Shown here piece after piece: positions 26,437 through 41,787 of a DNA stretch of 64,000 nucleotides. Source of the DNA: Alphaproteobacteria bacterium (GTDB taxonomy: Bacteria > Pseudomonadota > Alphaproteobacteria > UBA7887). The number at the start of each line of letters is the position of its first letter. The stretch's first letter is position 1. The stretch is from positions 448,001 through 512,000 of the forward strand of contig CBDCGL010000011.1 of assembly GCA_965216755.1 (NCBI GenBank), written 5' to 3'. The notes beneath the pieces were generated by a model. That model was given only the letters and a program-made list of their open reading frames with translations, was not told the origin of the DNA and did not search any database. Made by a program: the position numbers and the translations under genes.

Positions 26437-26880
26437 CTAGCAATTTTTCACTTGTCGAGCCTTCGCCCAGTCTTTGCCGAGTCGGACCAGCGTTTCTTCG
26501 TCCACGATCCGCCGCGCGAGGGGATAGAGTATCTCTTCTTCATTTTGAAAGTGATGGCGCGCAATGGCGAAAGTCTTCCGGACTGCATCTACCGCTTGCT
26601 GCACACTTGCCGCATCCTCGATGCGCTCAAGTCCGGACCGGATCTGACGATGCTGGGCGCACATCTTGGAGATCAAGTCGTCGTCTTCCAGCAGGGGCTT
26701 GAGCACCGGAAATAGAAACTCTTCTTCGAACGCTGCATGCCAGGCTACTTCGGCCGCCAGAGCCGCCAAAGCGCCCTCGATCTGAGCAAGATCGCCGCCT
26801 GTTTCAGCCGACTGTTCGACGGTTCTTAATAGCGCTTTGAACGCGCCATGTTCACCCGCAAGTGCGTCGATCAAATTCAT
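26437..26880 (-). CDS. Hemerythrin-like (HHE) domain protein
   Basis: EH...HAAFEEEFLFP...QH...HFQNEEEILYP; paralog of 41341-41787. Confidence 0.85.
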   Translation of the reverse strand: MNLIDALAGEHGAFKALLRTVEQSAETGGDLAQIEGALAALAAEVAWHAAFEEEFLFPVLKPLLEDDDLISKMCAQHRQIRSGLERIEDAASVQQAVDAVRKTFAIARHHFQNEEEILYPLARRIVDEETLVRLGKDWAKARQVKNC

Positions 26881-27108
26881 AAACATGCTCCCGTCGCCGC
26901 ATTGATTCGACTTTTTTCCGCAGCTCTGCGCGCGCTGTCGCAAGCGGGTAGCATACATGCTGGCGTCCCTACCTGGGTCGTCTTTTGACTTCGAGACTTA
27001 GTCGCCCCTTTACGCCAAACGTGGCAAAGCGACTTGGGACACTGAGATGGCCGCGCGCCGCGGCCAGGTTCACGACTATCGGGTGGTTGTGTTGGGTCAG
27101 CGGCGCCA

Positions 27109-27122
27109 TTGATTTAGGTAAA
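27109..27122. promoter_or_regulatory. Possible FNR/DNR-type box
   Basis: TTGAT-TTAG-GTAAA (2 mismatches to TTGAT-N4-ATCAA) between the divergent hemerythrin and regulator genes. Confidence 0.35.
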
Positions 27123-27307
27123 TGCAAACGCGACGATATTAGGATACCCGGCTTAGATGGGCGTGAGCGTCACATGAGCCAAGTAACAGCAACGGTGCAG
27201 AGGCGGGGCGTGTTGTGCCAAACGACGCGCGCGAGGTCATGTGGAGGCAGTCTGGCCTTGAGAGGTCTTGGTCGGATGTATGCCTTTAGACGCTGAGGGG
27301 GAGTCCG

Positions 27308-28510
27308 ATGATGGATGCCCGCTACGTGGTCGCGTATGCGTCAGACGCGGCATTCGCTGTCGACGAAAATTTGAAGATCGTCGCTTGGAATTACGCTGCG
27401 CGGGCCCTGTTGGGTTATACCCGTCATGAAGTGATCGGCAAGCACTGTTCGGAGATCCTCCAGCTGGTCCTACCGAACGGAGAACCGCTGTGCGTTCCTG
27501 GTTGCGAGGGGGTTCGGTGTTTCGAACACTTCCGACCTTTCACGACAGCGAATTGCTTGGCGCGGCATAAGGAGTCGCACTGGATCGCCTTAGAGGTCGC
27601 ATCTGTGGTGACGCCAAAACGAGCCCGTGCCCGGGATCGGCGCAGCGCAGTGGCAACCATATTATTGCGCAGACACAACGAAATCGAGGCTTCTCAGTCG
27701 AACCAGGCGGTGCTGCAAATCTTCACGTTCGGCCGGTTTGGGCTGGCCTTCGGCGGACGCGGTCTTGTCGTAGAGAAGTGGGAACGTCAGCATGCCGTGA
27801 CGCTGTTGAAAGTGCTTGTAGCGCACGCGGGCCGCGCAATACCCCGCGAAGTACTGATCGATTACCTCTGGCCGGACGCAGACGAAAGGAACGGATGGGA
27901 ACGATTGAAGGTGACAGTCTATTTCCTACGGCGAAGGCTGCGCGTCGCCGGGGTCGCAGAGGATGTCGTCGAGACCGTCAATCGAGCGTACAGACTACGA
28001 CCCGAAGCTGTATGGATCGATGCAGAGGTCTACGAATGTTGCATCGCGGCTGGATCGACCTATCAAACACGACAACGCTGGTATGATGCGCTCGACCAAT
28101 ATCGTAAGGCGCACAGGCTCTATCGGGGGCCCTATCTCAGCGGTGACATGTATGCGGACTGGTGTGCCGAAGAGCGTGAACGACTGCGTGAAATCCACCT
28201 GGAAATGCTGACCGATTTGGCGAAATGCCATTCGGCTCTCGACGGTTACGTTGACGCGGCGAGGGTTTGCCGAGAAATCCTCGCTGACGACCCTTGTCGC
28301 GAAAGTGCGCATCGTGCGCTCATGGAAAACCTTGTGCGCCTTGGCCGCAACGATTCGGCTCTGGCCCAATATCGTCAATGTCGACAGATCTTAGCTGACG
28401 AGCTTGGTGTGGAACCAATGCTCGAGACCCAAGCTCTTCACCGACAGATCGTGGCGCGAGGAAGAGCGGCCGCGGCCGCGTCAACGGAAGCGGTTCGGGG
28501 CGCCGAATAG
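27308..28510 (+). CDS. PAS-domain, winged-helix and BTAD (SARP-like) transcriptional regulator
   Basis: PAS: AFAVDENLKIVAWNYAARALLGY; wHTH: LIDYLWPD..LKVTVYFLRRRL; BTAD: LYRGPYL..W..EERERL, DPCRESAHRALM, ELGVEP. Confidence 0.88.
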   Translation: MMDARYVVAYASDAAFAVDENLKIVAWNYAARALLGYTRHEVIGKHCSEILQLVLPNGEPLCVPGCEGVRCFEHFRPFTTANCLARHKESHWIALEVASVVTPKRARARDRRSAVATILLRRHNEIEASQSNQAVLQIFTFGRFGLAFGGRGLVVEKWERQHAVTLLKVLVAHAGRAIPREVLIDYLWPDADERNGWERLKVTVYFLRRRLRVAGVAEDVVETVNRAYRLRPEAVWIDAEVYECCIAAGSTYQTRQRWYDALDQYRKAHRLYRGPYLSGDMYADWCAEERERLREIHLEMLTDLAKCHSALDGYVDAARVCREILADDPCRESAHRALMENLVRLGRNDSALAQYRQCRQILADELGVEPMLETQALHRQIVARGRAAAAASTEAVRGAE

Positions 28511-28691
28511 ACCCGATTTTTTAGCGCGGTCGCGAACCTCCCCTAGATCGGAAACAAGACAACTCGTCTGCGCACGCGGACGTCAAATTCCATTGATGCG
28601 CACCTTCCCGTCACTGGTATGTCACCAGGCAATGTTTTTGTACGCGTCGAATGTCGTCGTGTTGGCCAGTGGTGTGGACAGGCTATGCGAG

Positions 28692-28952
28692 ATGATCAGA
28701 GAGCGAGAACTCGATTCATTCGTTGCCCGTATCTGGATGGAACGTGGCAGCAACGGGGAACCGCTTTGGCGCGGACATGTTCGACACGTCCAAGGCGACC
28801 AAGAAGCCTATTTTCAGAACCTAAAGGAGATGGGCGAGTTTCTCGAACGGGTAAGCGGGGTCCCGTGCCCGGCCGCGACTGTTCGTGCGGGCAAATCAAA
28901 AAAACGCGGCGACAAGCCGAAAGCTGCCGCCCCCCGAGGCCGCAAACGATAG
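28692..28952 (+). CDS. Small hypothetical protein
   Basis: SFVARIWMER...WRGHVRHVQGDQEAYFQNL reads as a compact folded domain; co-directional between the regulator and the cytochrome c gene. Confidence 0.6.
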   Translation: MIRERELDSFVARIWMERGSNGEPLWRGHVRHVQGDQEAYFQNLKEMGEFLERVSGVPCPAATVRAGKSKKRGDKPKAAAPRGRKR

Positions 28953-29121
28953 ATCTGAGTCACACGTTTCAGTTCCGATCCAAGACGAGCAACGTATCAT
29001 TTGCACACTCAATATCTAGGCGACATCGCTATCCCACGGTGTGTGTGCATTTACCGATTCCTACCGCCGGGGGCGGCCAAGAATTCGAAGAGGGGTCGTG
29101 CAATGTCTTGTTGTGACCAGG

Positions 29122-29135
29122 TTGTAGTGAATCAA
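29122..29135 (+). promoter_or_regulatory. Possible FNR/DNR/NnrR-type box upstream of the nar operon
   Basis: TTGTA-GTGA-ATCAA (TTG-N8-CAA with a perfect right half-site), about 90 bp before the cytochrome c start. Confidence 0.45.
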
Positions 29136-29225
29136 TGCCGGGTTCTTGAGCGCCTTTTCCGGAGCAGCGTGTCCGACTCGGCGTTTCATTCAGGCAGATC
29201 GCCCGACCGCAAAAGGTTGACACGA

Positions 29226-29720
29226 ATGACGACCCACCTTCCGAAATTATGCAGATGGCCAACTTTGGTGCTTGTTCTGATCATCCTTGGTTGGCTCGTT
29301 CCACAAACGACTTGGGCCGTTGAAGATGGCCAAGAGCTTTTCGAAAGCAATTGTGCGGCCTGTCATACGATCGGCAAAGGTAAACTCGTCGGGCCCGACC
29401 TGGCAGGTGTTACGTCACGGCGCGAAGAAAGCTGGCTCGTACGCCAAATCCAAGATCCAGAGGCACTGATTGCCGAGGAGGATCCGATCGCCTTACAGCT
29501 TCTGGCGGAGGCCGACAATGTGCCAATGCCGACTCTGGAACTGACGGACGACGATGTTGGGGCCCTGATCACCTATTTGAAAGGCTTTGAACTAGGAGCT
29601 GAAGCAGACGTTGGGCTCCCGTCTCAATACCTTCCCACCATCATAATCAGTATCGTGCTAATCGTCCTCCTAACCATCATAGGCCTTAGGGTCGGGCGTA
29701 AGCAAGTCGATGTCAATTGA
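29226..29720 (+). CDS. Monoheme cytochrome c with signal peptide and C-terminal TM anchor (NarC-like)
   Basis: Hydrophobic leader, CAACH, GPDL, distal MP, C-terminal hydrophobic helix followed by RVGRK; 43 bp before narG. Confidence 0.85.
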   Translation: MTTHLPKLCRWPTLVLVLIILGWLVPQTTWAVEDGQELFESNCAACHTIGKGKLVGPDLAGVTSRREESWLVRQIQDPEALIAEEDPIALQLLAEADNVPMPTLELTDDDVGALITYLKGFELGAEADVGLPSQYLPTIIISIVLIVLLTIIGLRVGRKQVDVN

Positions 29721-29763
29721 ACCCACGAACCCTGGCGACCAGGAAGAAAGCTAAAGGTGAGTC

Positions 29764-32700
29764 ATGAAGAATGGTAGCAAGTGGTTTAACGTGAGCGAAG
29801 ACTCTCGTTCGTGGGAAGATTTCTACAGAAAACGATGGAACTATGACTACAGCGTACGAACGGGTCATGGCGTAAATTGTTCTATGGCCTGCAGTTGGGA
29901 AGTGTTTGTCAAAGACGGCCTTATCTGCTGGGAACTCCAGAAGACAGACTATCCACAAATTGATCCTGACATCCCGAATGTCGAGCCGAGGGGCTGCCAG
30001 CGTGGTGTCACCGCGTCGTGGTACCCGTACAGCCCCCTACGGCCCAAGTTTCCATATATTCGTAAAGTATTATGGGACTTCTATGCCGAAGAACGCAAGA
30101 AAGGAAAGGACCCTGTTGAAGCGTATGCAAGTATTGTGGAGAACGAACAACGTTCAACCGCATACAAAACTGCGAGAGGCAAGGCCGGTTGGAAACGCGT
30201 GAGTTGGGACGAGTCGGTTGAACTTGTTGCCGCGGCCCAGATCTACACGATCAAGCGCTATGGGGCCGACCATATGGCCAATTTCTCGCCAATTCCGGCC
30301 ATGAGCTTGCTGAGTTTCCTTTCCGGGCATAGGTACAACAATCTGCTTGGTGGCATCTATTGTAGCTACTATGAGTGGTATCATGATTTGCCACATGTTT
30401 CGTCGTCTATGTTTGCAGATCAGACCGAGAACTGTGAAAGCTCTGACTGGTATCTGGGGACATATTGGGTCGTGGCCGGGTCCAACATAAACATGACGCG
30501 GACCGCAGACGCTCATTTCTTATCTGAGGCCAAATATCGCGGTTCGAAAATCGTAGTAATGTCTCCAAACTATTCGGACGTGACAAAGTATGCGGACACT
30601 TGGGTGCCACTTACGCCAGGAAGTGACGGCGCCTTTCTCATGGCCTGTATACACGTCATCTTAAAAGAATTCTATGCAGAGCGCGACACGCCGTATTTCA
30701 CAAAGTACGTGAAGCAATACACAAATTTGCCGTTCCTCGTCGTATTAGAAGAGGATGGCGATAACTATCAGATGGGTCGATTCCTGCGGGCATCGGACAT
30801 TTCCGAGTATTCTGGTGAGGAGAACGCCGATTGGAAGCTCATAATGACCGATGGCGACCAGAAGCTGCACGTGCCGACCGGAAGCATCGGCTTTAGATGG
30901 GAAAAAGAACCTACCGGAAACTGGAATCTTCAGCTCAAGAATGCAGTGACGGGAGAAGACTTCGATCCACTACTGACAGTGCTCGGAAACGATGACCAAA
31001 GGGCAACAGTTTCCTTTAGCGACTTCACCGATACCTTCAATATTGAAACAGGCAAAACGAACGGCAAAGGTCAGAAAGCAACCGCTCTGTTACGCGAGGT
31101 ACCCGCGAGACGGGTCAAGATCAGTAGTGGCAAGACCGTACTCGTCACGACAGCCTATGACCTCTTGATGGCACAGGCTGGTGTATCGCGCGGGCTTGGG
31201 GGCGATTACCCCAAAGACTACGATGATCCAATGCCGTACACACCGGCATGGCAGGAATCGCAGACGGGCGTCAGTCGCGATCTCGCCATACAAATCGGGC
31301 GAGAGTTTGCCGAGAACGCCGAAAAGACCAAAGGAAAGTCGCTTTTCATAACTGGCCCTGGGATCCAGCACTTTTACCATGGCGCATCCCTGTATTACCG
31401 CAGCGAAGCGGTAATGCTGGCCCTGTGTGGCTGCAATGGTGTGAATGGGGGCAACTTTAATCATTATGTTGGCACACAACATACGCGGTTGAACGCGGCG
31501 TTCGTAAACTTGAGCGGAGCTTTGGATTGGTCGCGCCCGCCACGCCTTATGAACAGCACATCTTTGTGGTACTTCCATACGGGCCAGTGGCGATATGACA
31601 ACATGCCTTTGGATACACAATGGGCGGACGGCGCCAAAAAGCTTCCTGCTTTCAACCACGCAGCTGATGTGAACGCGCTGGCCGTCCGATTGGGGTGGCT
31701 GCCATTCTTCCCGCAAGTCGACAAGAAGAACCCAATGGCTCTTTACAGGGAGGCAATCGAAGCCGGCTGCAAGTCCGACGAGGAAGTGAAGGCGTGGGTT
31801 GTCAAGCAGTTCAAAGATGGCAAGTTGGATTTTGCAATTCGCGATGTTGATGCGCCCGAAAACCGCCTGAAAATGGTGACGGTCTATCGGGGCAATCTTA
31901 TCGGCACAAGTATGCGCGGCCATGAGTTGGCGCTCAAACATTTCCTTGGTACGCATAACAACGTTCTATGGGATGAAGAACCGGCCAAGGATCTGGTTAA
32001 AGAAATCGAATGGCATGAGGATTCCCCGGTCGGCAAGCTCGACTTGTTGGTTAACCTCAATATCCGAATGGACTCGACCGCAAACTATTCGGATGTCGTG
32101 TTGCCAGCAGCGTTCTGGTACGAGAAATACGACGTGACATTTGGTGATATGCACACTTTTGTGCATCCGTTGACGCCAGCCACCCAGCCGCCTTGGGAAG
32201 CCAAACATGACTGGGACGCGTTTCGGCTAATTGCCCGGAAGTTTACGGACTTGGCGAAGAAACACTTCCCCGAGCCGGTTAAGGACATCGTGTTCAACGC
32301 ACTGTGGATGGACAGTCCCGAACAACTCGCCCAACCGCTGGGAGAGATAAAGGATTGGCGTAACGGGGACACCGAACCGGTACCAGGCAAAACGTTTCCG
32401 AGCATTAGCATTGTCGAGAGAGACTACAGCCAAGTCTACGAGAAGATGGTTTCTCTTGGCCCACTCGTATGCCAGCCTAAGGGTTATGGTTCCAAGGGAC
32501 AATATACAGACCTGACGCCGATTGTTGAAGAAGAGCTCAAGCACAATGAGGCGCTTGAGGTGCGGGATGGGCGTGTCCGCTTCGAGCGAGCCGAGCAGGC
32601 GTGCGAACTGATTCTACAGATATCACCTGAGCTTAACGGTCGGCTATCTTGGCTTTTCTTCAAGGAGATGGAGAAAAAGGTCGGGTTGCCAATGGCCGAC

Positions 32701-33522
32701 ATGGTTGAAGTCGTCAAGAACCGAAAAGTCCATTACAAGGACGTCATTTCTCAACCGAGAAGAATTCATACGACACCACAATGGAGCGCGCTGCTGCATG
32801 ACGAAAACGGCAAGCAGCGGACATTTGCGCCATGGACAATGAACGTAGAACGACTCAAGCCGTGGCACACGCTCTCGGGACGGCAAGAGGTCTACTACGA
32901 CCATCAAGGCATTCGAGAGTTGGGCGAAGCGCTGCCGACAAACAAACCACCTCTCGACATGGTGGCCATCGGTGACATCAATATGGAACGGGCCGGCCCC
33001 AAGTCGAAAGTGTTCCGGTTCATCACGCCACATGGCAAATGGCAGATACATAGTTCGTTCAGAGACCACTGGCCGATGATGCATATGTCGCGGGGCGGAC
33101 CAACAGTCTGGATTAATCCCGATGATGCAAACGAAATTGAGGTGAAAGACAACGATTGGGTGGAGATGTATTGCGAAAATGGGATCGAGGTCGTACGCGC
33201 TGTCGTCAGCCATCAAGTCCCGCGCAACATGGCGATCACCTACCACCAAGTCGAACGAAACGTAAATGTTCCGTTTTCGCCTCTTGCAAAGCAGAACGAT
33301 TGTTCGGATTTACGCGGCGGAAACAACAATGCGACCACGCGTATCCTCATGAACCCGGCTACGATGATCGGCGGCTATGCACAGTTCTCCTATTACATCA
33401 ATTATTGGGGGACAAGCCCATCGGAACGCGATCACGGTGTGATCATTCGAAAAATGCCATTGGGCGTGGGTAACAAACCCATCTACCAGGAAAGTGAACT
33501 TCACAAGGTGCCGGCAAGGTAA
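29764..33522 (+). CDS. narG: Respiratory nitrate reductase alpha subunit (divergent NarG/NxrA-like)
   Basis: FS0 motif HGVNCSMAC...EPRGCQRG; FSPIPAMS; Mo-ligand Asp in WYHDLP; TPHGKWQIHS; no Tat leader. Confidence 0.92.
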   Translation: MKNGSKWFNVSEDSRSWEDFYRKRWNYDYSVRTGHGVNCSMACSWEVFVKDGLICWELQKTDYPQIDPDIPNVEPRGCQRGVTASWYPYSPLRPKFPYIRKVLWDFYAEERKKGKDPVEAYASIVENEQRSTAYKTARGKAGWKRVSWDESVELVAAAQIYTIKRYGADHMANFSPIPAMSLLSFLSGHRYNNLLGGIYCSYYEWYHDLPHVSSSMFADQTENCESSDWYLGTYWVVAGSNINMTRTADAHFLSEAKYRGSKIVVMSPNYSDVTKYADTWVPLTPGSDGAFLMACIHVILKEFYAERDTPYFTKYVKQYTNLPFLVVLEEDGDNYQMGRFLRASDISEYSGEENADWKLIMTDGDQKLHVPTGSIGFRWEKEPTGNWNLQLKNAVTGEDFDPLLTVLGNDDQRATVSFSDFTDTFNIETGKTNGKGQKATALLREVPARRVKISSGKTVLVTTAYDLLMAQAGVSRGLGGDYPKDYDDPMPYTPAWQESQTGVSRDLAIQIGREFAENAEKTKGKSLFITGPGIQHFYHGASLYYRSEAVMLALCGCNGVNGGNFNHYVGTQHTRLNAAFVNLSGALDWSRPPRLMNSTSLWYFHTGQWRYDNMPLDTQWADGAKKLPAFNHAADVNALAVRLGWLPFFPQVDKKNPMALYREAIEAGCKSDEEVKAWVVKQFKDGKLDFAIRDVDAPENRLKMVTVYRGNLIGTSMRGHELALKHFLGTHNNVLWDEEPAKDLVKEIEWHEDSPVGKLDLLVNLNIRMDSTANYSDVVLPAAFWYEKYDVTFGDMHTFVHPLTPATQPPWEAKHDWDAFRLIARKFTDLAKKHFPEPVKDIVFNALWMDSPEQLAQPLGEIKDWRNGDTEPVPGKTFPSISIVERDYSQVYEKMVSLGPLVCQPKGYGSKGQYTDLTPIVEEELKHNEALEVRDGRVRFERAEQACELILQISPELNGRLSWLFFKEMEKKVGLPMADMVEVVKNRKVHYKDVISQPRRIHTTPQWSALLHDENGKQRTFAPWTMNVERLKPWHTLSGRQEVYYDHQGIRELGEALPTNKPPLDMVAIGDINMERAGPKSKVFRFITPHGKWQIHSSFRDHWPMMHMSRGGPTVWINPDDANEIEVKDNDWVEMYCENGIEVVRAVVSHQVPRNMAITYHQVERNVNVPFSPLAKQNDCSDLRGGNNNATTRILMNPATMIGGYAQFSYYINYWGTSPSERDHGVIIRKMPLGVGNKPIYQESELHKVPAR

Positions 33523-33533
33523 GGACAAAGACT

Positions 33534-35102
33534 ATGCAGATTAAAGCCCAGCTAAGTATGTCCTTTAATTTGGAGAAGTGCATCGGCTGCAATACGTGCA
33601 CGGTCGCCTGTAAGAACGTTTGGACGAACCGTGAGGGCGCCGAATACATGTGGTGGAACAATGTCGAAACGAAGCCCGGTATCGGTTACCCGAAGCAATG
33701 GGAAAAGCAGGAACTCTGGAAAGGCGGTTGGATAAGAAAGGGAGATAAGCTTGTACTTCGCTACGGCAACAAGTCGTACATGCTCTCGAACCTGTTTTTC
33801 AATCCGCATATGCCGGAAATGGCTGACTATTATGGCAACGGCGACGTCTATACGTTCACATATGACGATCTCCACTCCAGCGATCAATCTCAGCAACAGC
33901 CGGTCGGACGGCCGAAGTCTATGGTCACCGATGAAGAGGATGTACCGATCGATTGGGGCGTTAATTGGGAGGACAACGCTGGTGGTGCTCACGTAACTGG
34001 AAAGCATGACGTCAACTACGGTGAAATGAGCAAGTCTGAAATGGAGGCGACTCTGAAGTTTCGAGACGTGTTCTATTTCTACCTGCCGCGCATTTGTAAT
34101 CATTGCCTTAATCCCGGTTGCGTCGGCGGTTGCCCGTCGGGCGCTGCATACAAACGGGACGAGGACGGCGTCGTCTTGATCGACCAGAACAGGTGTCGAA
34201 ATTGGCGCTACTGCATTTCGTCCTGCCCCTACAAGAAGCCGTACTACAACTGGGCAAGCGGCAAAATGGAGAAGTGCATTCTCTGCTATCCGAGAGTCGA
34301 ATCAGGCCTGCCGCCAGTCTGTTTCCATTCGTGTGTTGGCAAGATTCGGTCGTTTGGTGTCATTTTCTATGACATGGATCGTGTGCACGATGCCGCGATG
34401 GCGGATGACAAGGACTTGGTCGAAGCACAGCGGGATATCATTCTGGATCCGTTCGATCCGGCAATCATCGAAGCAGCCAAGAAATCTGGCATCAGCGATG
34501 ATTGGATCGACGCCGCGCAACGTTCACCGATATACAAGATGGTCAAGAAGTGGAAGTTGGCACTTCCCCTTCATCCCGAATTCAGAACCTTGCCAAACCT
34601 TTTTTACATACCGCCGTTGGCGCCGCTAATCACCAGCGCGGGCAACGTTTCGCCTTCGGACAAGGATATATTCGATATGGCGAAGCCATCCAACGGCCCG
34701 CTTATCGGCCTGGAGGAAATCGACAAGTTTCGTGTACCCCTTAAATATCTTGCGGGCTTATTCGGCGCGGGGAATGAGGATGTAGTCAGACTGGCTCTGC
34801 TGCGTCAGTTGGCTGTTCGACATTACCAGAGAAGCATTAGGGTCGACAACGCGCCCAACGTCGAAGTGCTCAAACAAGTCGGCCTTAGCGAAGAGGACGC
34901 TAAGGGAATCGTTCGCGGCTTATCGCTGTCATTTTATAACGAACGATTTGTCGTCCCGACTACCAAACGCGAAGCTGCGGATATCAGCCCATATACCGAG
35001 CGCGGTCTCGCCGGTTTTGAGCAGATGACACCGTGGTCACCAATGAAACGGAAGAAGAGCTATCACAAGTCATACCATACCGGGTCGAAGCGCTATGAGT
35101 GA
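33534..35102 (+). CDS. narH: Nitrate reductase beta subunit
   Basis: CIGCNTCTVACKNVWTNREGAEYMWWNNVETKPG; ICNHCLNPGC; CRNWRYC; KCILCYPR; LPLHPEFRTLP. Confidence 0.95.
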   Translation: MQIKAQLSMSFNLEKCIGCNTCTVACKNVWTNREGAEYMWWNNVETKPGIGYPKQWEKQELWKGGWIRKGDKLVLRYGNKSYMLSNLFFNPHMPEMADYYGNGDVYTFTYDDLHSSDQSQQQPVGRPKSMVTDEEDVPIDWGVNWEDNAGGAHVTGKHDVNYGEMSKSEMEATLKFRDVFYFYLPRICNHCLNPGCVGGCPSGAAYKRDEDGVVLIDQNRCRNWRYCISSCPYKKPYYNWASGKMEKCILCYPRVESGLPPVCFHSCVGKIRSFGVIFYDMDRVHDAAMADDKDLVEAQRDIILDPFDPAIIEAAKKSGISDDWIDAAQRSPIYKMVKKWKLALPLHPEFRTLPNLFYIPPLAPLITSAGNVSPSDKDIFDMAKPSNGPLIGLEEIDKFRVPLKYLAGLFGAGNEDVVRLALLRQLAVRHYQRSIRVDNAPNVEVLKQVGLSEEDAKGIVRGLSLSFYNERFVVPTTKREAADISPYTERGLAGFEQMTPWSPMKRKKSYHKSYHTGSKRYE

Positions 35103-35685
35103 TAAAGCAAGATCAAAGGTTTTGAGCGAGGTGTACGGACTCATTGCCGAGTTGTGGTGCGGTCCGCCGGACACGGGCGCGAAGCGTGATGGCATTGAGA
35201 AGGATGCTGTTGCGGCGCTAGGCCACCTCGACGAACTAGAACCAGAGGGTGCAACGCTTCTCCGACGATTTCTAGCCGAAGACGCGCTAGCGGAAGAAGA
35301 TTACATCGACCTGTTCGAGTTGGAGCCCAAGTGTGCGCTCTATCTCGGCAGCCATAGCTACGACGAACCCAAAACTTGCGCTGGCGCGGCGGTGTCCGAG
35401 CGCAACGAATACATGATCGAACTTGTTGGAATTTACCGACACTTCAAGCGGGTGCCAAATGGCACAGAATTGCCTGACTATTTGCCATTGATGGTGGACT
35501 TCTTAGCTCTAACGTCGGAATCGCAAGATGATCCCGTCAGAACAAAATTTATTCGGGAATATTTCGTTCCATACCTGTCGCCAATACGATCGCGCCTTCA
35601 AGAACTCAAGACACCGTACCTCTATCTTCTCCAGGCGCTTGAACGAATTGTCAGTGTTGACCAAAGGAACACTCAATGCCACTGA
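35095..35685 (+). CDS. narJ: Nitrate reductase assembly chaperone
   Basis: YIDLFE..CALYL and ELPDYLPLMVDFLA motifs; located between narH and narI. Confidence 0.85.
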   Translation: MSDKARSKVLSEVYGLIAELWCGPPDTGAKRDGIEKDAVAALGHLDELEPEGATLLRRFLAEDALAEEDYIDLFELEPKCALYLGSHSYDEPKTCAGAAVSERNEYMIELVGIYRHFKRVPNGTELPDYLPLMVDFLALTSESQDDPVRTKFIREYFVPYLSPIRSRLQELKTPYLYLLQALERIVSVDQRNTQCH

Positions 35686-35709
35686 GCGTTGAAGGAAAGG
35701 TGGAAGAGG

Positions 35710-36408
35710 ATGTGGGATAATTTCTTTTTCGTCGGACTCCCGTACATTGCCATCATTCTGCTGATCGGCGGCACGATACATCGCGGCTTAAGTGGGACTA
35801 TGAGTGGATATCGCGGGAAATGGGATTTAAGCGCGCGCGGCGACTTTTTGTGGACAACACGTTCCACAGGCTTTTTTGGGCGTGCTTCAATCGGACCCGC
35901 TTCCTTGTGTTTACATTGGGGAGCGATAATCCTTCTTGTTGGGCATATTGCCGGTTTTATCGGCGGTGCATACAATCTCACGTCGTGGGTTGAGTTCTTT
36001 AGGTGGGCCGGGTTGGGGGGCGGCGTTCTCTTCATCTATGGCTTGGCTTGGGCCTTTGTTCGCCGGCTCAGTATCCCGCAAGTTCGCGCAATGAGCACAC
36101 CGGATGACTACATCATTCTGATTTTCCTAATCTTGATTGGGGGACTCGGTTTGTACCAATCCGGTATTGAGTTGGTTTTCGGAGTTTCATATTCGGTGGG
36201 GCCCTGGTTCGCGAGTGTGTTCAAGCTGCAACCGGACATATCAATGATTTCAGGCGCACCGCTGGTTAACAAGCTGCACATTATCCTGGCACTGCTTTTC
36301 TTTGCCTACCTGCCGTTTACAAAACTCGTGCACATTTTTAGCTATCCGTTCGGCTACATGACGCGACCGTTCATCTCAATGAGAAAGTATGTGGCGCTGA
36401 AAAAGTAA
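35710..36408 (+). CDS. narI: Nitrate reductase gamma subunit (cytochrome b)
   Basis: WTTRS; four His ligands (LHWG, GHIAG, KLHI, PFTKLVH); five TM helices. Confidence 0.92.
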   Translation: MWDNFFFVGLPYIAIILLIGGTIHRGLSGTMSGYRGKWDLSARGDFLWTTRSTGFFGRASIGPASLCLHWGAIILLVGHIAGFIGGAYNLTSWVEFFRWAGLGGGVLFIYGLAWAFVRRLSIPQVRAMSTPDDYIILIFLILIGGLGLYQSGIELVFGVSYSVGPWFASVFKLQPDISMISGAPLVNKLHIILALLFFAYLPFTKLVHIFSYPFGYMTRPFISMRKYVALKK

Positions 36409-36741
36409 GGGCGTGTTTCGGTATCCGATCGTATCGATCCGGGGCGGTGTTCGGGGCTGCAAGGTGATGACTTGCTGGGTGAAGCCGAGAGAAGTCCCGT
36501 ACCGGAAACGTGGCCGGTTCTCGACTTTGACGAGGACTTGCGGATCTGAGCACGACGCCATGTGGGCCGTAAGGATTTCAAAGAGAGTGGCACCCGAGTG
36601 CGTCGTGGATTGTTTCCCAAAGCACAGACTGCGGTGGCTGTTGCCACAACCGCGGCGATGCGATCCGGCCGTCCGGCAATGTCGGACCCGCAAGAGCGTT
36701 AAGCCATTGTGGTCGGACAATGCATATGGGGTGTGCATATA

Positions 36742-39444
36742 GTGAGCGACGACACCATAGTATACGATCGAAGGAAACAATACACCGTTCTTACCATGAA
36801 TACGGCGGCCTTTACGGTCAATTTCATGGTTTGGACGATGTTCTCGATTATTGGCATTAAAATCAAAGGCGAGCTCGGTCTCAATGAGACGGAGTTCGGG
36901 TTGTTGGTCGCCACTCCCATTCTTACCGGATCTCTCGTCCGACTGCCGTTGGGTTTGTTGACCGATCGGTACGGCGGCCGCGTCGTATATTTCTGTCAAA
37001 TGCTTTTGGTTGCTATTTCTACCTATGGATTAGCATTTGCCGACCAATACTGGCAGTACCTTCTCATTGGCCTTTGTATAGGCCTGGCCGGCGGTTCCTT
37101 TGCCATCGGGATCGCCTATACGTCAGCATGGTTTGGCAGACGCCAGCAAGGTACGGCCATGGGGATCTTCGGGGCCGGCAACGCGGGCGCTGCCGTCACC
37201 AATATGGTTGCACCGTTGATCGTTGTTGCACTCGGCTGGCGGGCCGTGCCGCAGATTTATTCGATTACAATGCTTGTGATGGCGATCATATTTTGGATGT
37301 TTACGTATCCGGATCCGTTATTGGAGGAACGCCGCAGAACGCGTAGCATACCAAGCCTTGCCGAACAACTTGTACCGCTGGGCGATCTTCGAGTTTGGCG
37401 TTTTGGTCTGGCATATTACTTTGTCTTCGGCGGATTTGTCGCGCTCGCGCTTTGGTTGCCAAAATACTATATGCAAGAGTACGGGCTTGGCCTTACTCAA
37501 GCATCATATATTGCTTTGGCATTTACGTTGCCGTCTGGCGTGATCCGGGCGCTTGGCGGATGGTTCTCCGACAAATGGGGCGGGGATACGGTTACCTGGT
37601 GGGTATTTTGGGTTTCCATAATTTGTTTGTTTTTTCTGTCGTACCCGGCGACGACATTTACTGTACACGGGATATCGGGTGACACGACTTTCGACCTCGC
37701 CGTCAGCGTCATCTTCTTCACGTTTCTTGTATTTATTGTGGGTATCGCGCAAGGCATTGGGAAGGCCAGCGTCTACCGGAGCCTCGCCGACGTGTATCCC
37801 AGAAACATGGGTGCGGTAGGCGGTTTGGTTGGTGTCATTGGCGGACTGGGTGGCTTCTCACTTCCCATCATGTTCGGCGTAGCAGCTGATGCGACCGATG
37901 TGCGTAGCAGCACGTTTATGCTGATGTATGCCGTCCTCGCAGGAATCATGTTGTGGACTTGGTTGGCGGCTAAACAAGAACGGTTGAAGATGCTTCAGGG
38001 CGACCCGGAGTATCGCGAGAAAGTCATCCGGAACGAAATTCTTGCGGCGGCCCAGCAACCGACGAGTTGGCTGCGGGACTGGCGACCGGAGGATGACGCG
38101 TTTTGGGGTCGGAGCGGTCGCAGTATCGCTTTACGCAACCTAATCTTCTCGATGCCGCCCCTGCTATTGTCATTTGCGGTGTGGATGGTTTGGAGCGTTG
38201 TCGTCGTCGAACTACCCCGCATCGGCTTTGAGTTCTCAACGAGTGAGTTGTTCTGGTTGGCAGCCGCACCGGGCCTTTCTGGTGCCGCTTTAAGGCTTCT
38301 CTACGCTTTTGTCGTCCCGATCTTCGGAGGTAGAAACTGGACAATAGTGAGTACGGCGTCTCTTTTGATACCGACGTTGTGGATGTCGTTGGCTGTTCAG
38401 AATCCCGGCACTGACTATGCTGTTTTTGTTGTTATCGCGCTGCTGTGCGGCTTAGGCGGTGGCAATTTCTCCTCCAGTATGGCCAACATAAGTTTCTTCT
38501 TTCCCAGACGAATGCAGGGTACGGCCCTGGGCTGGAACGCAGGGATCGGTAATCTCGGCGTCGGACTCGTTCAGGCGGTCGTTCCGCTGGTTATCTATGC
38601 CGGCGCATTCACAATCTTAGGGGGTGAAGCGCAATCTCATGTGAGTGGTGACGTTGTCAGCGCGGTCTGGTTGCAAAACGCAGGATTTGCTTGGATTCCA
38701 TTTATACTTGGCGCCACTTTCGCTTCGGCACTCACTCAGAACAACATCCAGGAGGCGCGTGCAACGTTTAGTCAGCAATGTGTCATTTTTGCGCGGAAGC
38801 ACGCTTGGTTACTTGCCTGGCTGTATGTCGGCACATTCGGTTCCTTCATAGGCTTCTCAGCCGCTTTTCCGGGGCTGCTCAATACCCTGTTTCCAGAAAC
38901 GGACATCGTCCGGTGGGCATTTATCGGACCATTGCTTGGTGCCCTAATTCGGCCGCTTGGCGGCTGGCTTTCGGATCGAGTTGGTGGGGCAAGGGTCACG
39001 TTTTGGAATTTTGTGGTGATGTTGGTGGCCGCGATCGCGTTGGTTTGGACGTTGCCGTCGGGACCTGCTGGCAGTGACGCATTTGGGTTCGTCCTGGCAT
39101 CTATGTTGCTTTTTGTTACGGCGGGTATCGGAAACGGATCAGTTTTCCATCTGGTGCCGACCGTATTTAGCAAGCTCCACGTCAATCGCGCCGGTGCGGC
39201 CGCGCGCGTCGGCGAAACGGCCGCCATATCAAGCAGCGAGATTGAAACATCCGTCGCGCTGGGCTTCGCTGCGTCTATTGGGGCTCTGGGTTTGTTCTTT
39301 GTGCCAGCGTTCTTCGCAATATCTATCGAGAGCACTGGCACCGCTCGGTTGGCCCTGCTTGCCTTTGTTGCATTTTGCCTTTCATGCCTGTTCGTGACTT
39401 GGTGGTGGTATCGACGTCCAGGATCGGAAGTCGAATGTGCTTGA
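36742..39444 (+). CDS. narK: Fused NarK1-NarK2 nitrate/nitrite MFS transporter
   Basis: Two MFS modules: GLAGGSF and GIFGAGNAG in the first; WRPEDDAFW, GLGGGNFSSSMANISFFFP and GIGNGS in the second. Confidence 0.9.
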   Translation: MSDDTIVYDRRKQYTVLTMNTAAFTVNFMVWTMFSIIGIKIKGELGLNETEFGLLVATPILTGSLVRLPLGLLTDRYGGRVVYFCQMLLVAISTYGLAFADQYWQYLLIGLCIGLAGGSFAIGIAYTSAWFGRRQQGTAMGIFGAGNAGAAVTNMVAPLIVVALGWRAVPQIYSITMLVMAIIFWMFTYPDPLLEERRRTRSIPSLAEQLVPLGDLRVWRFGLAYYFVFGGFVALALWLPKYYMQEYGLGLTQASYIALAFTLPSGVIRALGGWFSDKWGGDTVTWWVFWVSIICLFFLSYPATTFTVHGISGDTTFDLAVSVIFFTFLVFIVGIAQGIGKASVYRSLADVYPRNMGAVGGLVGVIGGLGGFSLPIMFGVAADATDVRSSTFMLMYAVLAGIMLWTWLAAKQERLKMLQGDPEYREKVIRNEILAAAQQPTSWLRDWRPEDDAFWGRSGRSIALRNLIFSMPPLLLSFAVWMVWSVVVVELPRIGFEFSTSELFWLAAAPGLSGAALRLLYAFVVPIFGGRNWTIVSTASLLIPTLWMSLAVQNPGTDYAVFVVIALLCGLGGGNFSSSMANISFFFPRRMQGTALGWNAGIGNLGVGLVQAVVPLVIYAGAFTILGGEAQSHVSGDVVSAVWLQNAGFAWIPFILGATFASALTQNNIQEARATFSQQCVIFARKHAWLLAWLYVGTFGSFIGFSAAFPGLLNTLFPETDIVRWAFIGPLLGALIRPLGGWLSDRVGGARVTFWNFVVMLVAAIALVWTLPSGPAGSDAFGFVLASMLLFVTAGIGNGSVFHLVPTVFSKLHVNRAGAAARVGETAAISSSEIETSVALGFAASIGALGLFFVPAFFAISIESTGTARLALLAFVAFCLSCLFVTWWWYRRPGSEVECA

Positions 39445-39604
39445 TATGTGCTATCGAAGGTCTTGGTCCCCACGGCGCTACACATACCGGAAATACGCTG
39501 GGTGTCACCGAGCCTTTTGCGCGCGCAACCGACTCGTATTCGCGGTCGAAAGAGCGTGAGGTCGGTGTGATGAGCGACACAATGCGAAGCAACGGAAAAA
39601 CGAG

Positions 39605-41221
39605 ATGACTGAAATTACAAGGTGGGATATAGAAGACGGCGCATTCTGGGACTCGACTGGAAAACGCATCGCCAACCGCAATCTTTGGATCTCTGTGCCA
39701 AGCCTTCTGTGCGGCTTTGCTGTCTGGCTATACTGGGGAATCATCTCGGTCCAGATGCTAAATTTAGGGTTCCCATTTTCCAAGTCCGAGTTGTTTACAC
39801 TAACCGCGATAGCCGGATTTACGGGCGCGACACTACGGATTCCAAGTACGTTCTTCATCAGGATTGCTGGTGGGCGCAATACAATCTTTTTTACGACAGC
39901 CCTCCTGATGATTCCTGCGATCGGCTCTGGGATTGCACTGCAAGACAAAGATACGCCGCTATGGATGTTTCAGATCTTAGCACTGCTGTCCGGCTTCGGC
40001 GGCGGCAATTTCGCTTCCTCAATGTCCAACATCAGTTTCTTCTTTCCCAAGCGCATGCAAGGTCTTGCACTTGGTCTTAATGCGGGCCTGGGCAATGCCG
40101 GTGTCACCACTATGCAGGTGTTGGTTCCTTTGGTGATGACATTTGGCGTTTTCGGTGCGTTGGGCGGTGACCCAATGATCCTGCAAAACACTTCCGGTAC
40201 TTTGGTGGGTAAGATTCCTGCCGGCTCGGAAACCTGGATCGCCAATGCCGGTTTGGTTTGGTTGGTCCTGTTAATTCCGCTCGCGCTTGCCGGTTGGTTT
40301 GGCATGAACAACATACGAACACCCGAAGTCACACCCGTGATCAGTGGAGGCGTTATTGGCGCTTTCACACGTATAACATCAATGCTATTGGTCGGGTTGA
40401 CTACAGCGGCAGTGGGTCTCTATTTCATTCTTCCGGCGCCTTTTGGATTGGGTTTGCCGAATTGGTCGAAGTGGTACGTGCTCATCGGTGTCATCGCTGC
40501 AACAGTTATCCTTCTCTACTATGTCTGCTTTTTTGTTAGGGACAATCTCCGCCGCCAATATCAGATTTTCCGCAACAAGCATACGTGGGTGATGAGCGTC
40601 ATCTACACCATGACCTTCGGTTCTTTCATCGGCTATTCTGCCGCGTTTCCACTCGCCATCAAAGTTGTCTTTGGTTTTCAGCATCTTGAAGTCGATGGCG
40701 TCATGACGCACGACACGCTCAATCCGAATGGTCCGAGCGCGCTCATGTTTGCTTGGATGGGACCCTTTATTGGCGCCCTGATCCGACCTTTTGGGGGGTG
40801 GATTTCGGACAAGGTCGGTGGTGCAAAGGTCACGCAGGTCATCACAATCATAATGATCCTTAGTGCACTTGGTGTTGCCTACTACATGCACGCGGCTTAC
40901 CAGTCTGCAACACCGGAGGATTTCTTTCTGCCGTTCTTCGTTCTATTTCTTGTGCTGTTTGCGGGGACCGGGATAGGCAACGGTTCGACGTTTCGTACGA
41001 TTGCAATGATTTTTCCCAAGGAACAGGCCGGGCCGTCTTTGGGTTGGACGTCAGCCGTGGCCGCGTACGGTGCGTTCATTATACCCCAGGTATTCGGCGA
41101 ACAGATCAAGGCTGCGACGCCGGAACACGCGCTTTACGGTTTCGCGGTATTCTATTTTATTTGCCTACTACTTAATTGGTGGTACTACTTGGGGCCGAAA
41201 AGAGAGTTCGATAACCCTTAA
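39605..41221 (+). CDS. narK: NarK2/NarU-type nitrate/nitrite antiporter
   Basis: WDIEDGAFW..IANRNLWISVP, GFGGGNFASSMSNISFFFP, GIGNGSTFR. Confidence 0.92.
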   Translation: MTEITRWDIEDGAFWDSTGKRIANRNLWISVPSLLCGFAVWLYWGIISVQMLNLGFPFSKSELFTLTAIAGFTGATLRIPSTFFIRIAGGRNTIFFTTALLMIPAIGSGIALQDKDTPLWMFQILALLSGFGGGNFASSMSNISFFFPKRMQGLALGLNAGLGNAGVTTMQVLVPLVMTFGVFGALGGDPMILQNTSGTLVGKIPAGSETWIANAGLVWLVLLIPLALAGWFGMNNIRTPEVTPVISGGVIGAFTRITSMLLVGLTTAAVGLYFILPAPFGLGLPNWSKWYVLIGVIAATVILLYYVCFFVRDNLRRQYQIFRNKHTWVMSVIYTMTFGSFIGYSAAFPLAIKVVFGFQHLEVDGVMTHDTLNPNGPSALMFAWMGPFIGALIRPFGGWISDKVGGAKVTQVITIIMILSALGVAYYMHAAYQSATPEDFFLPFFVLFLVLFAGTGIGNGSTFRTIAMIFPKEQAGPSLGWTSAVAAYGAFIIPQVFGEQIKAATPEHALYGFAVFYFICLLLNWWYYLGPKREFDNP

Positions 41222-41340
41222 GAGTTTTGTTCGATGCGGCTGATCCTAGTGGTAAACGGCGAGGGTTCCATTTTATCGAAATCCGGTTAGGTCTAGAGAA
41301 CGGATGGAAGTCAAGCTCTGAGCGCAGGTAACAAATCGGT

Positions 41341-41787
41341 TCAGACTATACAAACTTTCCGAGTTCGGGCCCAATCCGTCCCGAGCTTGGTCAATGCGTC
41401 AGCGCCCAAAATTCGTCGCGCCATGGGAAACAGGACCTCTTCTTCCTTACGAAAATGGCTGCGCGCGGCGCTTAATGCGTCGGCCACCCAATAAACCGCT
41501 TGCTCGACTTCGTCTACGTCTTCGATTTGACCAAGTAGCTGCTCCATTTCGCGGTGTTCCGCAGTCATAACGGCTAGCGGACCGGCGTCCTGTCCCAAGT
41601 AAGGGGAGAGCGCGGTGAAAAGAAGGTCCTCCTCAATCTTGGCGTGCGAATCTACCATTGTCGCCAATACAGTTGTGGCGGCACGGATCTGAGCCATGGC
41701 ACCCTCAATAGTGGCGATGTCTTCAACTTGATTAAATAACATGTAAAACGCACCGTGTTCGCCAAGTAATGCGTCAGTCAATTGCAT
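41341..41787 (-). CDS. Hemerythrin-like (HHE) domain protein
   Basis: EHGAF...HAKIEEDLLF...EH...HFRKEEEVLFP. Confidence 0.85.
   Translation of the reverse strand: MQLTDALLGEHGAFYMLFNQVEDIATIEGAMAQIRAATTVLATMVDSHAKIEEDLLFTALSPYLGQDAGPLAVMTAEHREMEQLLGQIEDVDEVEQAVYWVADALSAARSHFRKEEEVLFPMARRILGADALTKLGTDWARTRKVCIV

Follow-up and report, generated by a model that had tools for sequence, protein, structure and literature searches.

Respiratory nitrate reductases of the E. coli and Paracoccus type are cytoplasm-facing NarGHJI enzymes with linked NarK transporters, controlled by NarXL, NarR or FNR and lacking a cytochrome c subunit. Their narK gene lies upstream in E. coli, and Paracoccus has a fused NarK1–NarK2. 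The element of Thermus thermophilus (dnrST, narCGHJIK(T), drpAB) is described as having a nar operon headed by a c-type cytochrome gene, narC, whose product carries two haems (PMC7694296). The BTAD/winged-helix activator DnrS is encoded just upstream in place of NarXL or FNR, and the cluster spreads horizontally (PMC7694296, PMC5748679, PMC6282519); DnrS is reported to be needed for nar transcription and to shift conformation in oxygen (PMC5748679, PMC6282519).

We analysed a 64-kb stretch of alphaproteobacterial DNA (the window) in which positions 26437–41787 hold a nar module resembling the Thermus element in gene layout and regulator. The module runs HemA (minus strand), regulator, small gene, cytochrome c, narGHJI, fused narK–narK, narK3 and HemB (minus strand). 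Every gene of the original prediction was recovered in place by open reading frame (ORF) and Pfam/NCBIfam profile checks, which also brought out a conserved 86-aa gene between regulator and cytochrome (28692–28952) that was absent from that earlier reading. The predicted lack of narXL, narR, FNR and Moco genes is valid for the ORFs scanned, given that no Pfam match to histidine kinase, response regulator, Crp/Fnr or Moco-synthesis families was found in 47 window ORFs (18 + 29, mostly at least 90 aa). The features are as follows.

26210–26262, plus strand: left copy of a repeat of about 50 nt bracketing the module, in direct orientation with 43161–43213
26437–26880, minus strand: hemerythrin HemA, 147 aa (Pfam PF01814 (HHE), E 2.7e-25)
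27308–28510, plus strand: regulator, 'mini-DnrS', with four-cysteine PAS, OmpR-type winged helix and BTAD (Pfam BTAD, 3.1e-30; Trans_reg_C; PAS)
28610–28628, plus strand: candidate operator, a GTYACYRG pair with 11-nt spacing, followed by TG and a −10-like hexamer
28692–28952, plus strand: conserved 86-aa protein outside known families (137 homologues)
29226–29720, plus strand: single-haem c-type cytochrome, 164 aa (Pfam Cytochrom_C; one CxxCH)
29764–33522, plus strand: NarG, catalytic subunit (TIGR01580, 1330 bits; cut-off 1084)
33534–35102, plus strand: NarH, iron-sulfur subunit (TIGR01660, 647 bits; cut-off 524)
35095–35685, plus strand: NarJ chaperone (TIGR00684, 61.7 bits; cut-off 59.35)
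35689–36408, plus strand: NarI, di-haem b membrane subunit (Pfam PF02665, 140 bits)
36709–39444, plus strand: fused NarK–NarK, 911 aa (two TIGR00886 stretches, 505 bits)
39605–41221, plus strand: third NarK-family transporter, 538 aa (TIGR00886, 283 bits, below the cut-off of 311.7)
41341–41787, minus strand: hemerythrin HemB, a paralogue of HemA (Pfam E 2.2e-17)
42847–43710, minus strand: transposase remnants (HTH_Tnp_1, 96 aa; DDE_Tnp_1, 175 aa)
43161–43213, plus strand: right copy of the repeat of about 50 nt

The predicted Thermus-type architecture stands for the gene layout and the DnrS-homologous regulator, and fails for NarG ancestry, the two-haem NarC, DrpA and DnrT. A DnrT-like Crp gene, the DUF2249 proteins DrpA and DrpB, the nrc genes and the GAF domain of the regulator are all missing here, and the module instead has the small protein, the hemerythrins and the fused NarK pair; its narK genes lie downstream of the enzyme genes, opposite to the arrangement in E. 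coli.

NarG of the window is 41–45% identical to NarG of E. coli, Ralstonia, Azospirillum and two further loci (L065 and L066), and 46% identical to that of Thermus, which is no nearer than the proteobacterial type. A search with this NarG returned 67 loci, 62 of them at 74–91% identity over the best segment; among the loci found, four lay at 57–60% and two, of the ordinary type, at 45%. In a 57-row tree, which contains no named NxrA, the window sequence falls inside a 43-row clade on a stem of 0.42 (SH-aLRT 100), with Thermus, Bacillus, Streptomyces and proteobacterial NarG all across that stem, and a 50%-identity library of 1.84 billion proteins represents the lineage by one sequence (84%), the next full-length matches being at 41–42%. 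Judged by sequence, this NarG belongs to a deep lineage separate from the E. coli type and the Thermus type alike, which bears out its description as non-proteobacterial in style and speaks against Thermus-like ancestry. Its close relatives, at 75–89% identity, come from metagenome-assembled genomes (MAGs) assigned to over 15 phyla, assignments that may be wrong, so the cross-phylum spread could be overstated.

This lineage seems to correspond to the non-gamma (OP1/OP3-type) variant known from SAR11 of oxygen-minimum zones (PMC5723336, PMC12374537): two Pelagibacter MAG loci (L037, L039) have it at 83–87% identity, together with the cytochrome gene, and the 43% identity between the two NarG copies of locus L013 fits the roughly 45% reported between the two SAR11 variants (PMC12374537). 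The module had been proposed as an undescribed system; its NarG lineage is apparently known already, and for the accessory and regulatory genes no description was found in the literature searched, the available text of the SAR11 reports making no mention of the cytochrome, regulator, small protein or hemerythrin (PMC5723336, PMC12374537).

The N-terminal region of NarG has an H-x3-C-x3-C motif and, on inspection for one, no twin-arginine signal. NarI scores 96.2 bits under TIGR00351, below the cut-off of 105.55, and retains four histidines invariant in the 35 sequences compared. NarGHI would act as a quinol:nitrate oxidoreductase facing the cytoplasm, matured by NarJ, and the three NarK units (the fused pair and the single protein) would bring nitrate in and carry nitrite out. 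Counterparts in L001, L003, L041, L050 and the same-family genome G009 are 72–78% identical for the fused NarK–NarK and 85–87% for the third NarK.

The predicted association of the cytochrome with narG proved general, a full copy lying immediately 5′ of narG in 46 of 51 usable loci (a partial copy in three, none in two), with spacing that ranges from an overlap up to a gap of 125 nt; the gene is absent from all four sister loci, E. coli, L065 and L066. Homologues favour the ATG at 29226 within an ORF spanning 29001–29720, giving a protein with an N-terminal signal or anchor, a C-terminal membrane helix, and a CxxCH and a methionine that are invariant across homologues. It matches the first haem domain of Thermus NarC at 28% over 92 aa (E 2e-7), a homology that depends on this single pairwise match because the family model missed Thermus NarC at E 1e-5. 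This membrane-anchored, periplasm-facing cytochrome would dock on NarI as Thermus NarC does, connecting the NarI haems with periplasmic redox partners, aiding assembly, or both.

As predicted, the regulator is genuinely homologous to DnrS: its output domain and that of Thermus DnrS share 28% identity over 214 aa (E 4e-16). The two proteins also have three N-terminal cysteines in common. The regulator is shorter, having no GAF domain, and also aligns with a long Chloroflexota form. Its C47, C62 and C66 are kept in 120 of 120 sequences and C71 in 119. Its expected co-occurrence with narG was only partial (21 of 51 loci). The OmpR-type winged helix followed by BTAD is also the architecture of Streptomyces SARPs such as AfsR, which serve actinobacterial secondary metabolism, whereas the type found here has a four-cysteine PAS and heads operons for respiration, both in proteobacteria and in other phyla. 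SARP sites are described as direct-repeat pairs one helical turn apart, 5′ of the −10 and in place of the −35, the layout of the candidate operator (PMC11301090). Allowing up to one mismatch, the operator pattern has a single match in the 64-kb window (0.02 expected); allowing up to two, 14 of 16 loci have it 5′ of the small gene, and loci linked to idr genes have related repeats.

From these patterns we infer the binding, sensing and electron-transfer steps of the following scheme. The regulator would be a cluster-encoded activator whose PAS cysteines hold a metal centre labile to O2 or redox change, with an Fe-S cluster the likeliest candidate; the cysteines could instead ligate a structural zinc, with no sensing cluster. 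Its winged helix would bind the GTYACYRG pair, replacing the −35 of a promoter 5′ of the small gene, and under anoxia that promoter would activate the genes from the small gene through narC and narGHJI to the narK genes. The operon probably begins with the small gene. In the window itself the −10-like hexamer is poor, the gap between small gene and cytochrome is 273 nt versus 40–140 nt in relatives, and a second promoter is possible. The 137 homologues of the small protein are all unnamed, and it matched no Pfam family; its AF2 core of three strands and a helix (pLDDT >90 at residues 10–55) had no significant structural match. It is an obligate companion of the regulator and, at a guess, a co-regulator or nucleic-acid-binding adaptor.

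The hemerythrins are less constant. Homologues favour a start at 26880 for HemA (ORF 26437–26958), which falls short of the NCBIfam RIC/YtfE and PA2171 cut-offs; HemB is 46% identical to it. HemA is divergent from the regulator also in L003, L014, L041, L046 and G009, so the predicted hemerythrin linkage extends to five other genomes, and a close hemerythrin is present in only 4 of 51 loci (4 of the 21 with the regulator) plus G009. None was found in L002, L004, L008, L025, L043 or L067 despite ample upstream sequence, and no HemB counterpart lies 3′ of narK3 in G009, L001, L003 or L041. The parallel drawn with a hemerythrin-like DrpA does not hold, DrpA being a DUF2249 protein. The hemerythrins are optional extras that may act as buffers or sensors of O2 or NO, or shield Fe-S clusters.

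Horizontal acquisition is indicated by the module's scattered occurrence, its lower G+C and insertion-sequence (IS) remnants. Among 22 same-family genomes, two have this narG type and one the ordinary type; the NarG matches are at 88% in G009, which has identical gene order between unrelated flanks, and at 91% over a 267-aa fragment in G015. G+C is 0.533 in the module versus 0.592 in the contig. IS remnants bracket the module along with the repeats of about 50 nt. The two bracketing repeats are identical over their first 48 nt, a third copy lies inverted at 46716–46796, and five copies occur genome-wide. The predicted mobility therefore survives as an acquired island but not as a self-transferring element, no integrase or transfer genes having been seen. 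An ordinary, vertically inherited nar operon with the hemerythrins, regulator and cytochrome as chance neighbours might be expected in a denitrifying host, and HemB indeed has no counterpart in relatives. This account is nevertheless extremely improbable: it is contradicted by the family patchiness (2 of 22), by a NarG tree whose nearest sequences come from many phyla, and by locus synteny, narG being repeatedly accompanied by the cytochrome (46 of 51), the regulator, the small gene and the operator.

Two further alternatives concern function. The enzyme might work mainly in reverse or bidirectionally, as a cytoplasm-facing nitrite oxidoreductase passing electrons through cytochrome c to an oxidase, the route suggested for Nitrobacter-type NXR; Nitrobacter is reported to have a c-type cytochrome gene before its catalytic gene (PMC7694296), cytoplasmic NXRs are closely related to NarG (PMC6050957), and the lineage abounds at sites with measured nitrite oxidation at very low oxygen (PMC10359470). 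We regard this as quite unlikely, as NarG, NarH and NarJ exceed the NCBI nitrate-reductase cut-offs, the enzyme genes are linked to three NarK transporters, nirS and nosZ are present in the host, and the regulator pair heads other reductase operons too. The signal read by the regulator might also be nitrate, nitrite or NO instead of oxygen, with hemerythrin as sensory partner. RIC/YtfE-type hemerythrin-like di-iron proteins respond to NO, the window hemerythrin is a weak RIC/YtfE match divergent from the regulator here and in L003, L041, L046 and G009, and NO also reacts with cysteine-bound Fe-S clusters. Yet most regulator-bearing loci have no close hemerythrin, and the pair's presence at iodate-reductase-like and cytochrome operons argues for a signal shared by anaerobic respirations, which makes N-oxide sensing unlikely.

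That wider linkage came from a sample of 401 alphaproteobacterial genomes, nine of which, this one included, have the regulator. The small gene lies directly 3′ of it in all eight others, where the pair is followed by narC, with narG where the locus reaches that far, in three, by an iodate-reductase-like gene set in three (two from one genus), by other cytochrome genes in one and by a contig end in one. In G260, G386 and G401, relatives of the pair precede genes for an AioA-like Mo subunit, a Tat-Rieske subunit and two di-haem peroxidases, the gene content described for the idrABP1P2 iodate island (PMC8692401), which makes these sets idr-like. That island shares with the nar module its horizontal spread and oxygen-minimum-zone ties and differs in its terminal reductase. 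Because the pair also heads such other respiratory operons, regulator and small gene together probably sense anoxia rather than nitrate. The host carries a single narG, with nirS and nosZ outside the module, and, regulation and proposed roles included, we consider it likely that 26437–41787 is a horizontally acquired nitrate-respiration module in an alphaproteobacterial denitrifier.

We annotated the nar module by combining an ORF listing with Pfam and NCBIfam scans, and found all of the genes named in the original prediction at their predicted positions and in the predicted order, together with a small conserved gene that had been overlooked. The proposed lack of narXL, narR, FNR and molybdenum-cofactor (Moco) genes was likewise upheld, with no match to histidine kinase, response regulator, Crp/Fnr or Moco-synthesis families among the 47 window ORFs scanned with Pfam; a tRNA was the sole match in an Rfam scan of the window for non-coding RNAs.

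Genes of the nar module
26437–26958, minus strand: hemerythrin HemA (ORF listing and Pfam; homologue-based start at 26880, giving 147 aa)
27308–28510, plus strand: PAS/winged-helix/BTAD regulator (Pfam/NCBIfam scan)
28692–28952, plus strand: small conserved gene, 86 aa
29001–29720, plus strand: c-type cytochrome ORF (homologue-based start at ATG 29226, giving 164 aa)
29764–33522, plus strand: NarG (TIGR01580, 1330 bits; cut-off 1084)
33534–35102, plus strand: NarH (TIGR01660, 647 bits; cut-off 524)
35095–35685, plus strand: NarJ (TIGR00684, 61.7 bits; cut-off 59.35)
35689–36408, plus strand: NarI (Pfam PF02665, 140 bits; TIGR00351, 96.2 bits; cut-off 105.55)
36709–39444, plus strand: fused NarK pair, 911 aa (ORF listing, Pfam/NCBIfam scan)
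39605–41221, plus strand: third NarK (ORF listing, Pfam/NCBIfam scan)
41341–41787, minus strand: hemerythrin HemB (ORF listing, Pfam/NCBIfam scan)

NarG, NarH and NarJ each scored above the curated NCBIfam equivalog cut-offs. NarI fell short of its TIGR00351 cut-off and carries four candidate haem-ligand histidines, invariant across 35 sequences. The first 120 residues of NarG contain an H-x3-C-x3-C motif and no twin-arginine signal, and the subunit is therefore cytoplasm-facing. NarG is 41% identical to E. coli NarG, 43–45% identical to NarG of Ralstonia, Azospirillum, Streptomyces, Bacillus and two ordinary proteobacterial loci, and 46% identical to Thermus NarG. A NarG scan covering one genome per species returned 67 loci, which by best segment comprised 62 at 74–91% identity, 4 at 57–60% (hereafter sister loci) and 2 at 45%. 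The close loci come from metagenome-assembled genomes (MAGs) labelled Rhodospirillaceae, Woeseiaceae, Pelagibacteraceae, Marinimicrobia, Myxococcota, Bacteroidota, Planctomycetota, Verrucomicrobiota, Chloroflexota, Gemmatimonadota, Aquificaceae, Thermotogae and others. In a 50%-identity library of 1.84 billion representatives, the entire lineage was represented by one protein (84% identical), and the next full-length matches reached only 41–42%.

We then placed NarG in a maximum-likelihood tree of 57 rows, which omitted two window copies, rows shorter than 1000 aa, matches covering fewer than 1000 residues and three rows with ambiguous letters or stops. The window NarG fell inside a clade of 43 rows whose stem measures 0.42 substitutions per site (SH-aLRT 100) and, within it, in a 14-row marine subclade (SH-aLRT 100), with Thermus, Bacillus, Streptomyces and proteobacterial NarG on the other side of the tree. 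The original prediction had cast the module as non-proteobacterial in style, and the tree bears this out, NarG lying outside ordinary proteobacterial NarG. Taxon labels within the 43-row clade are scrambled, with the caveat that MAG labels can be wrong. SAR11 bacteria of oxygen-minimum zones are described as carrying two NarG variants, gamma-type and OP1/OP3-type, mutually about 45% identical (available text of PMC5723336 and PMC12374537). Two Pelagibacter MAG loci (L037, included in the tree, and L039) belong to the present lineage, and one contig (L013:2282-16034) carries both NarG types in convergent orientation, 86% and 43% identical to the window NarG and 43% identical to each other. Because the lineage occurs in these Pelagibacter loci and both types co-occur at 43% identity on L013, we infer that it probably corresponds to the non-gamma (OP1/OP3-type) SAR11 variant.

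To follow the cytochrome across this lineage, we searched all six-frame ORFs of the loci with profile models built from our own alignments. In a usable set of 51 close-lineage loci with a NarG N-terminus and at least 500 nt of upstream sequence, a full-length cytochrome homologue preceded narG in 46, ending between 125 nt before and 12 nt past the narG start; the gap in the window is 44 nt. Three further loci (L026, L030 and L055) gave partial matches, and two (L015 and L036, both labelled Verrucomicrobia) had no homologue. The same profile search found none in the four sister loci, in E. coli or in the two ordinary proteobacterial loci. All of the full-length cytochromes listed have one CxxCH site, a hydrophobic N-terminus and a C-terminal membrane helix, and the CxxCH and one methionine are invariant in 38 sequences. 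A database search returned 675 relatives, with generic names throughout. Thermus NarC is described as a di-haem membrane cytochrome (in the accessible part of PMC7694296), and the 262-aa protein showed two CxxCH sites in a BLASTP alignment in which the module cytochrome matched the first haem domain only (28% over 92 aa). We take the module cytochrome as a putative single-haem functional counterpart of NarC. The proposed Thermus-like, cytochrome c-first gene order stands as to position and departs from Thermus in having one haem rather than two. Two local features were also observed: the small gene and the cytochrome lie 273 nt apart here (28953–29225) versus about 40–140 nt in relatives, and the intervening sequence may hold an insertion or a second promoter; and in a Chloroflexota locus (L023:9186-9998) the small protein and cytochrome share one 270-aa open frame, which may reflect a fusion or a missing stop that is read through.

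The regulator is a short homologue of DnrS, the BTAD activator of the Thermus nar element. Its output half, made up of the winged helix and BTAD, shares 28% identity with DnrS over 214 aa (E 4e-16), and Pfam found BTAD in both proteins. A domain scan of DnrS returned GAF plus BTAD, in line with its published description (PMC5748679, as far as the text was accessible), whereas the regulator gave no Pfam match to GAF; when it was aligned with DnrS and with a Chloroflexota form of 739 aa (L023), a gap stood opposite the GAF region of both. No DnrT-like partner lay next to it, with no Crp/Fnr match in the 47 scanned ORFs. The regulator family numbers 424 members at E ≤1e-10, under generic names only. 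C47, C62 and C66 are invariant in all 13 aligned sequences, DnrS included, and occur in 120 of 120 homologues (C71 in 119 of the 120), forming a C-x14-C-x3-C-x4-C pattern within the PAS fold. The oxygen sensitivity of DnrS has been placed in its GAF domain, as a hypothesis (portions of PMC5748679 and PMC6282519). Judging from sequence conservation, we offer the regulator's cysteines as a candidate alternative site for oxygen sensing, and we infer that the four would hold an Fe–S cluster. NreB of staphylococci senses oxygen via a four-cysteine PAS Fe–S cluster.

When the intergenic sequence separating the regulator from the small gene was aligned across loci, two GTYACYRG repeats emerged, spaced 11 nt apart and followed 4 nt downstream by TG and then a −10-like hexamer. 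This pattern occurs once in the 64-kb window, at 28610–28628 (0.02 expected by chance at ≤1 mismatch). At ≤2 mismatches, 14 of 16 loci have it 41–79 nt ahead of the small gene; the two that do not are L014, with a degraded regulator, and L023, with the long form. Sites of SARP activators are described as direct repeats that sit 8 nt upstream of the −10 and overlap the −35 (available excerpt of PMC11301090), and the candidate operator shares this layout, with direct repeats one helical turn apart next to a −10. A candidate operator of SARP-site layout ahead of the small gene suggests that this gene is probably the first of the activated operon. The small protein has 137 homologues, all unnamed, with no Pfam family and no Pfam match at E values up to 10. 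In its predicted structure, a confidently modelled core with one helix and three strands leads into a basic tail that is disordered. Among ESM Atlas clusters the best (score 0.88) is unnamed, a Foldseek search against the PDB gave no match at E ≤0.001 and the best VIA-align hit (Z 5.1) lay inside the background range; with no informative structural neighbour, the fold suggests no function.

We next surveyed 401 genomes sampled across the class, nine of which, this one included, encode a full-length regulator homologue. The small gene directly follows the regulator in all eight other genomes, and the pair precedes different operons.

Genes downstream of the regulator–small gene pair in the eight other genomes
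G185, G009, G121: cytochrome, then narG in G009, the sole locus of the three that reaches that far
G103: contig end
G260 (L100:1501-9922), G386 (L102:2084-7920), G401 (L103:6120-13348): two di-haem peroxidase/MauG-like proteins, a Tat-Rieske subunit and an AioA-like molybdoenzyme
G119 (L101:3682-12862): EB_dh-type haem-b, c-type cytochrome and cytochrome-bd-subunit-I-like genes

The AioA-like molybdoenzymes of G260, G386 and G401 (the first two from the same genus) score about 400 bits against TIGR02693. The gene content of these three sets matches that described for the iodate reductase island idrABP1P2 (accessible text of PMC8692401), and hence we call them iodate-reductase-like. Related TGTYAC repeats at the same spacing lie between the regulator pair and the reductase set in these loci, and in G119 the upstream sequence holds the repeat box in four tandem copies. 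Because the regulator pair is common to different terminal reductases, it would most simply sense lack of oxygen rather than nitrate.

The hemerythrins showed a looser association with the module. HemA and HemB are paralogues that share 46% identity over 145 aa. A close HemA homologue (E ≤1e-60) lies divergently upstream of the regulator in L003, L041, L046 and the same-family genome G009, and L014, with its degraded regulator, has two copies; such a homologue is missing in six loci whose regulator is intact and whose upstream sequence is ample. No HemB counterpart follows the third narK in G009, L001, L003 or L041. Against RIC/YtfE models, both proteins scored 24.6–33.6 bits (cut-offs 204–300), and only the generic hemerythrin HHE domain was matched at threshold. 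Elements shared by the HemA and HemB promoters are limited to an unproven 19-nt inverted and 19-nt direct match. The hemerythrins look like optional additions to the module, and their proposed likeness to DrpA did not survive: Thermus DrpA and DrpB match PF10006 (DUF2249), a domain with no match among the 47 window ORFs scanned.

The host genome is 99.8% complete in 11 contigs, a level that suggests a culture as its possible source. It encodes a single-copy narG and, far from the window, nosZ and two nirS genes. Because its 16S is 89.5% identical to Skermanella and Azospirillum sequences (from a plasmid collection), the host is an alphaproteobacterium, probably positioned near Rhodospirillales. 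The present NarG type occurs in 2 of 22 same-family genomes (G009, 88% identical; G015, 91% over a 267-aa fragment at a contig end) and the ordinary type in one (G013); in the 18 genomes that represent the class's other families, NarG pieces turned up in G031 alone (43%). In G009 the order is conserved from hemerythrin to third narK, the second hemerythrin is absent and the flanks are unrelated housekeeping genes. G+C is 0.533 for the module versus 0.592 for the contig, and insertion-sequence (IS) features adjoin it.

Repeats and transposase remnants around the module
26210 and 43161: element of about 50 nt, direct repeat bracketing the module
42847–43710: transposase remnants (Pfam)
46716–46796: third copy of the element of about 50 nt, inverted

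The patchy distribution of the NarG type, the unrelated flanks in G009, the low G+C, the transposase remnants and the bracketing repeat together point to an island acquired by horizontal transfer. We considered whether the repeats could be integrase attachment sites; with two further copies elsewhere in the genome, five in total, and transposase remnants adjoining, this was ruled out, and they look like IS-end relics instead. No integrase or transfer genes were seen and self-mobility is not demonstrable, so the description of the module as mobile holds in the sense of an acquired island and not of a self-mobile one. Beyond the module, inverted copies of the repeat (43161–46796) flank a DDE transposase remnant and a molybdopterin oxidoreductase gene (44100–46364, minus strand; Fdh/NasC-like, carrying an Fe4S4 domain), an arrangement that resembles a composite-transposon relic. 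IS genes upstream of the module comprise an rve_3 fragment, an IS21-type istA/istB pair and an IS3-type integrase (4085–4681, 9472–11734 and 16504–17331). A 757-aa NosR/NirI-like protein with Fer4_5 and FMN_bind domains (5196–7469, minus strand) lies in an IS-rich stretch far from nosZ, two neighbouring adenylate/guanylate cyclases with long TPR regions (14337–16148 and 17677–20832) have an IS3-type gene between them, and a 389-aa protein (59304–60473, minus strand) has a C-terminal cytochrome P460 domain (27.4 bits; cut-off 27).

Taken together, the module works like the Thermus nar element (dnrST, narCGHJIK(T) and drpAB) but outside its lineage. The Thermus architecture put forward in the original prediction is shared in that the cytochrome gene leads, a DnrS-type activator lies alongside and NarXL/FNR is not needed; it is not shared in NarG ancestry (46% identity, opposite side of the tree), haem count (one in the cytochrome versus two in NarC), the regulator's GAF domain, DnrT or DrpAB. 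The suggestion of an undescribed system was also partly right: the NarG lineage appears already known from ocean surveys, whereas the open-access literature searched held no description of the fourth subunit, four-cysteine mini-DnrS, operator, small partner or operon reuse. We advance one joint reading tentatively, judging it on balance doubtful: a PAS-SARP activator with four cysteines, its obligate 86-aa partner and a TGTYAC-type tandem operator would form an unrecognised portable ‘anoxia switch’ that moves with nitrate, iodate-like and other respiratory islands across phyla, while the single-haem cytochrome c would give the nitrate reductase, abundant in oxygen-minimum zones, a fourth subunit through which it trades electrons with the periplasm, either bypassing the bc1 complex or operating in reverse.

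In oxygen-deficient waters, narG is reported as the most abundant nitrogen-cycle gene (available text of PMC5723336 and PMC10359470), and the present lineage includes loci of SAR11, Marinimicrobia, Rhodospirillaceae and Woeseia MAGs. Should a periplasmic cytochrome c be a regular part of the enzyme, the enzyme's position in electron flow needs to be reconsidered, a question that bears on nitrite accumulation and the reversibility of the reaction. If one compact oxygen-sensing activator controls the enzyme, the switch between aerobic and nitrate respiration in oxygen-deficient waters becomes testable. With the regulator pair also in front of iodate-reductase-like operons, two redox cycles of the ocean would come under a single control device.
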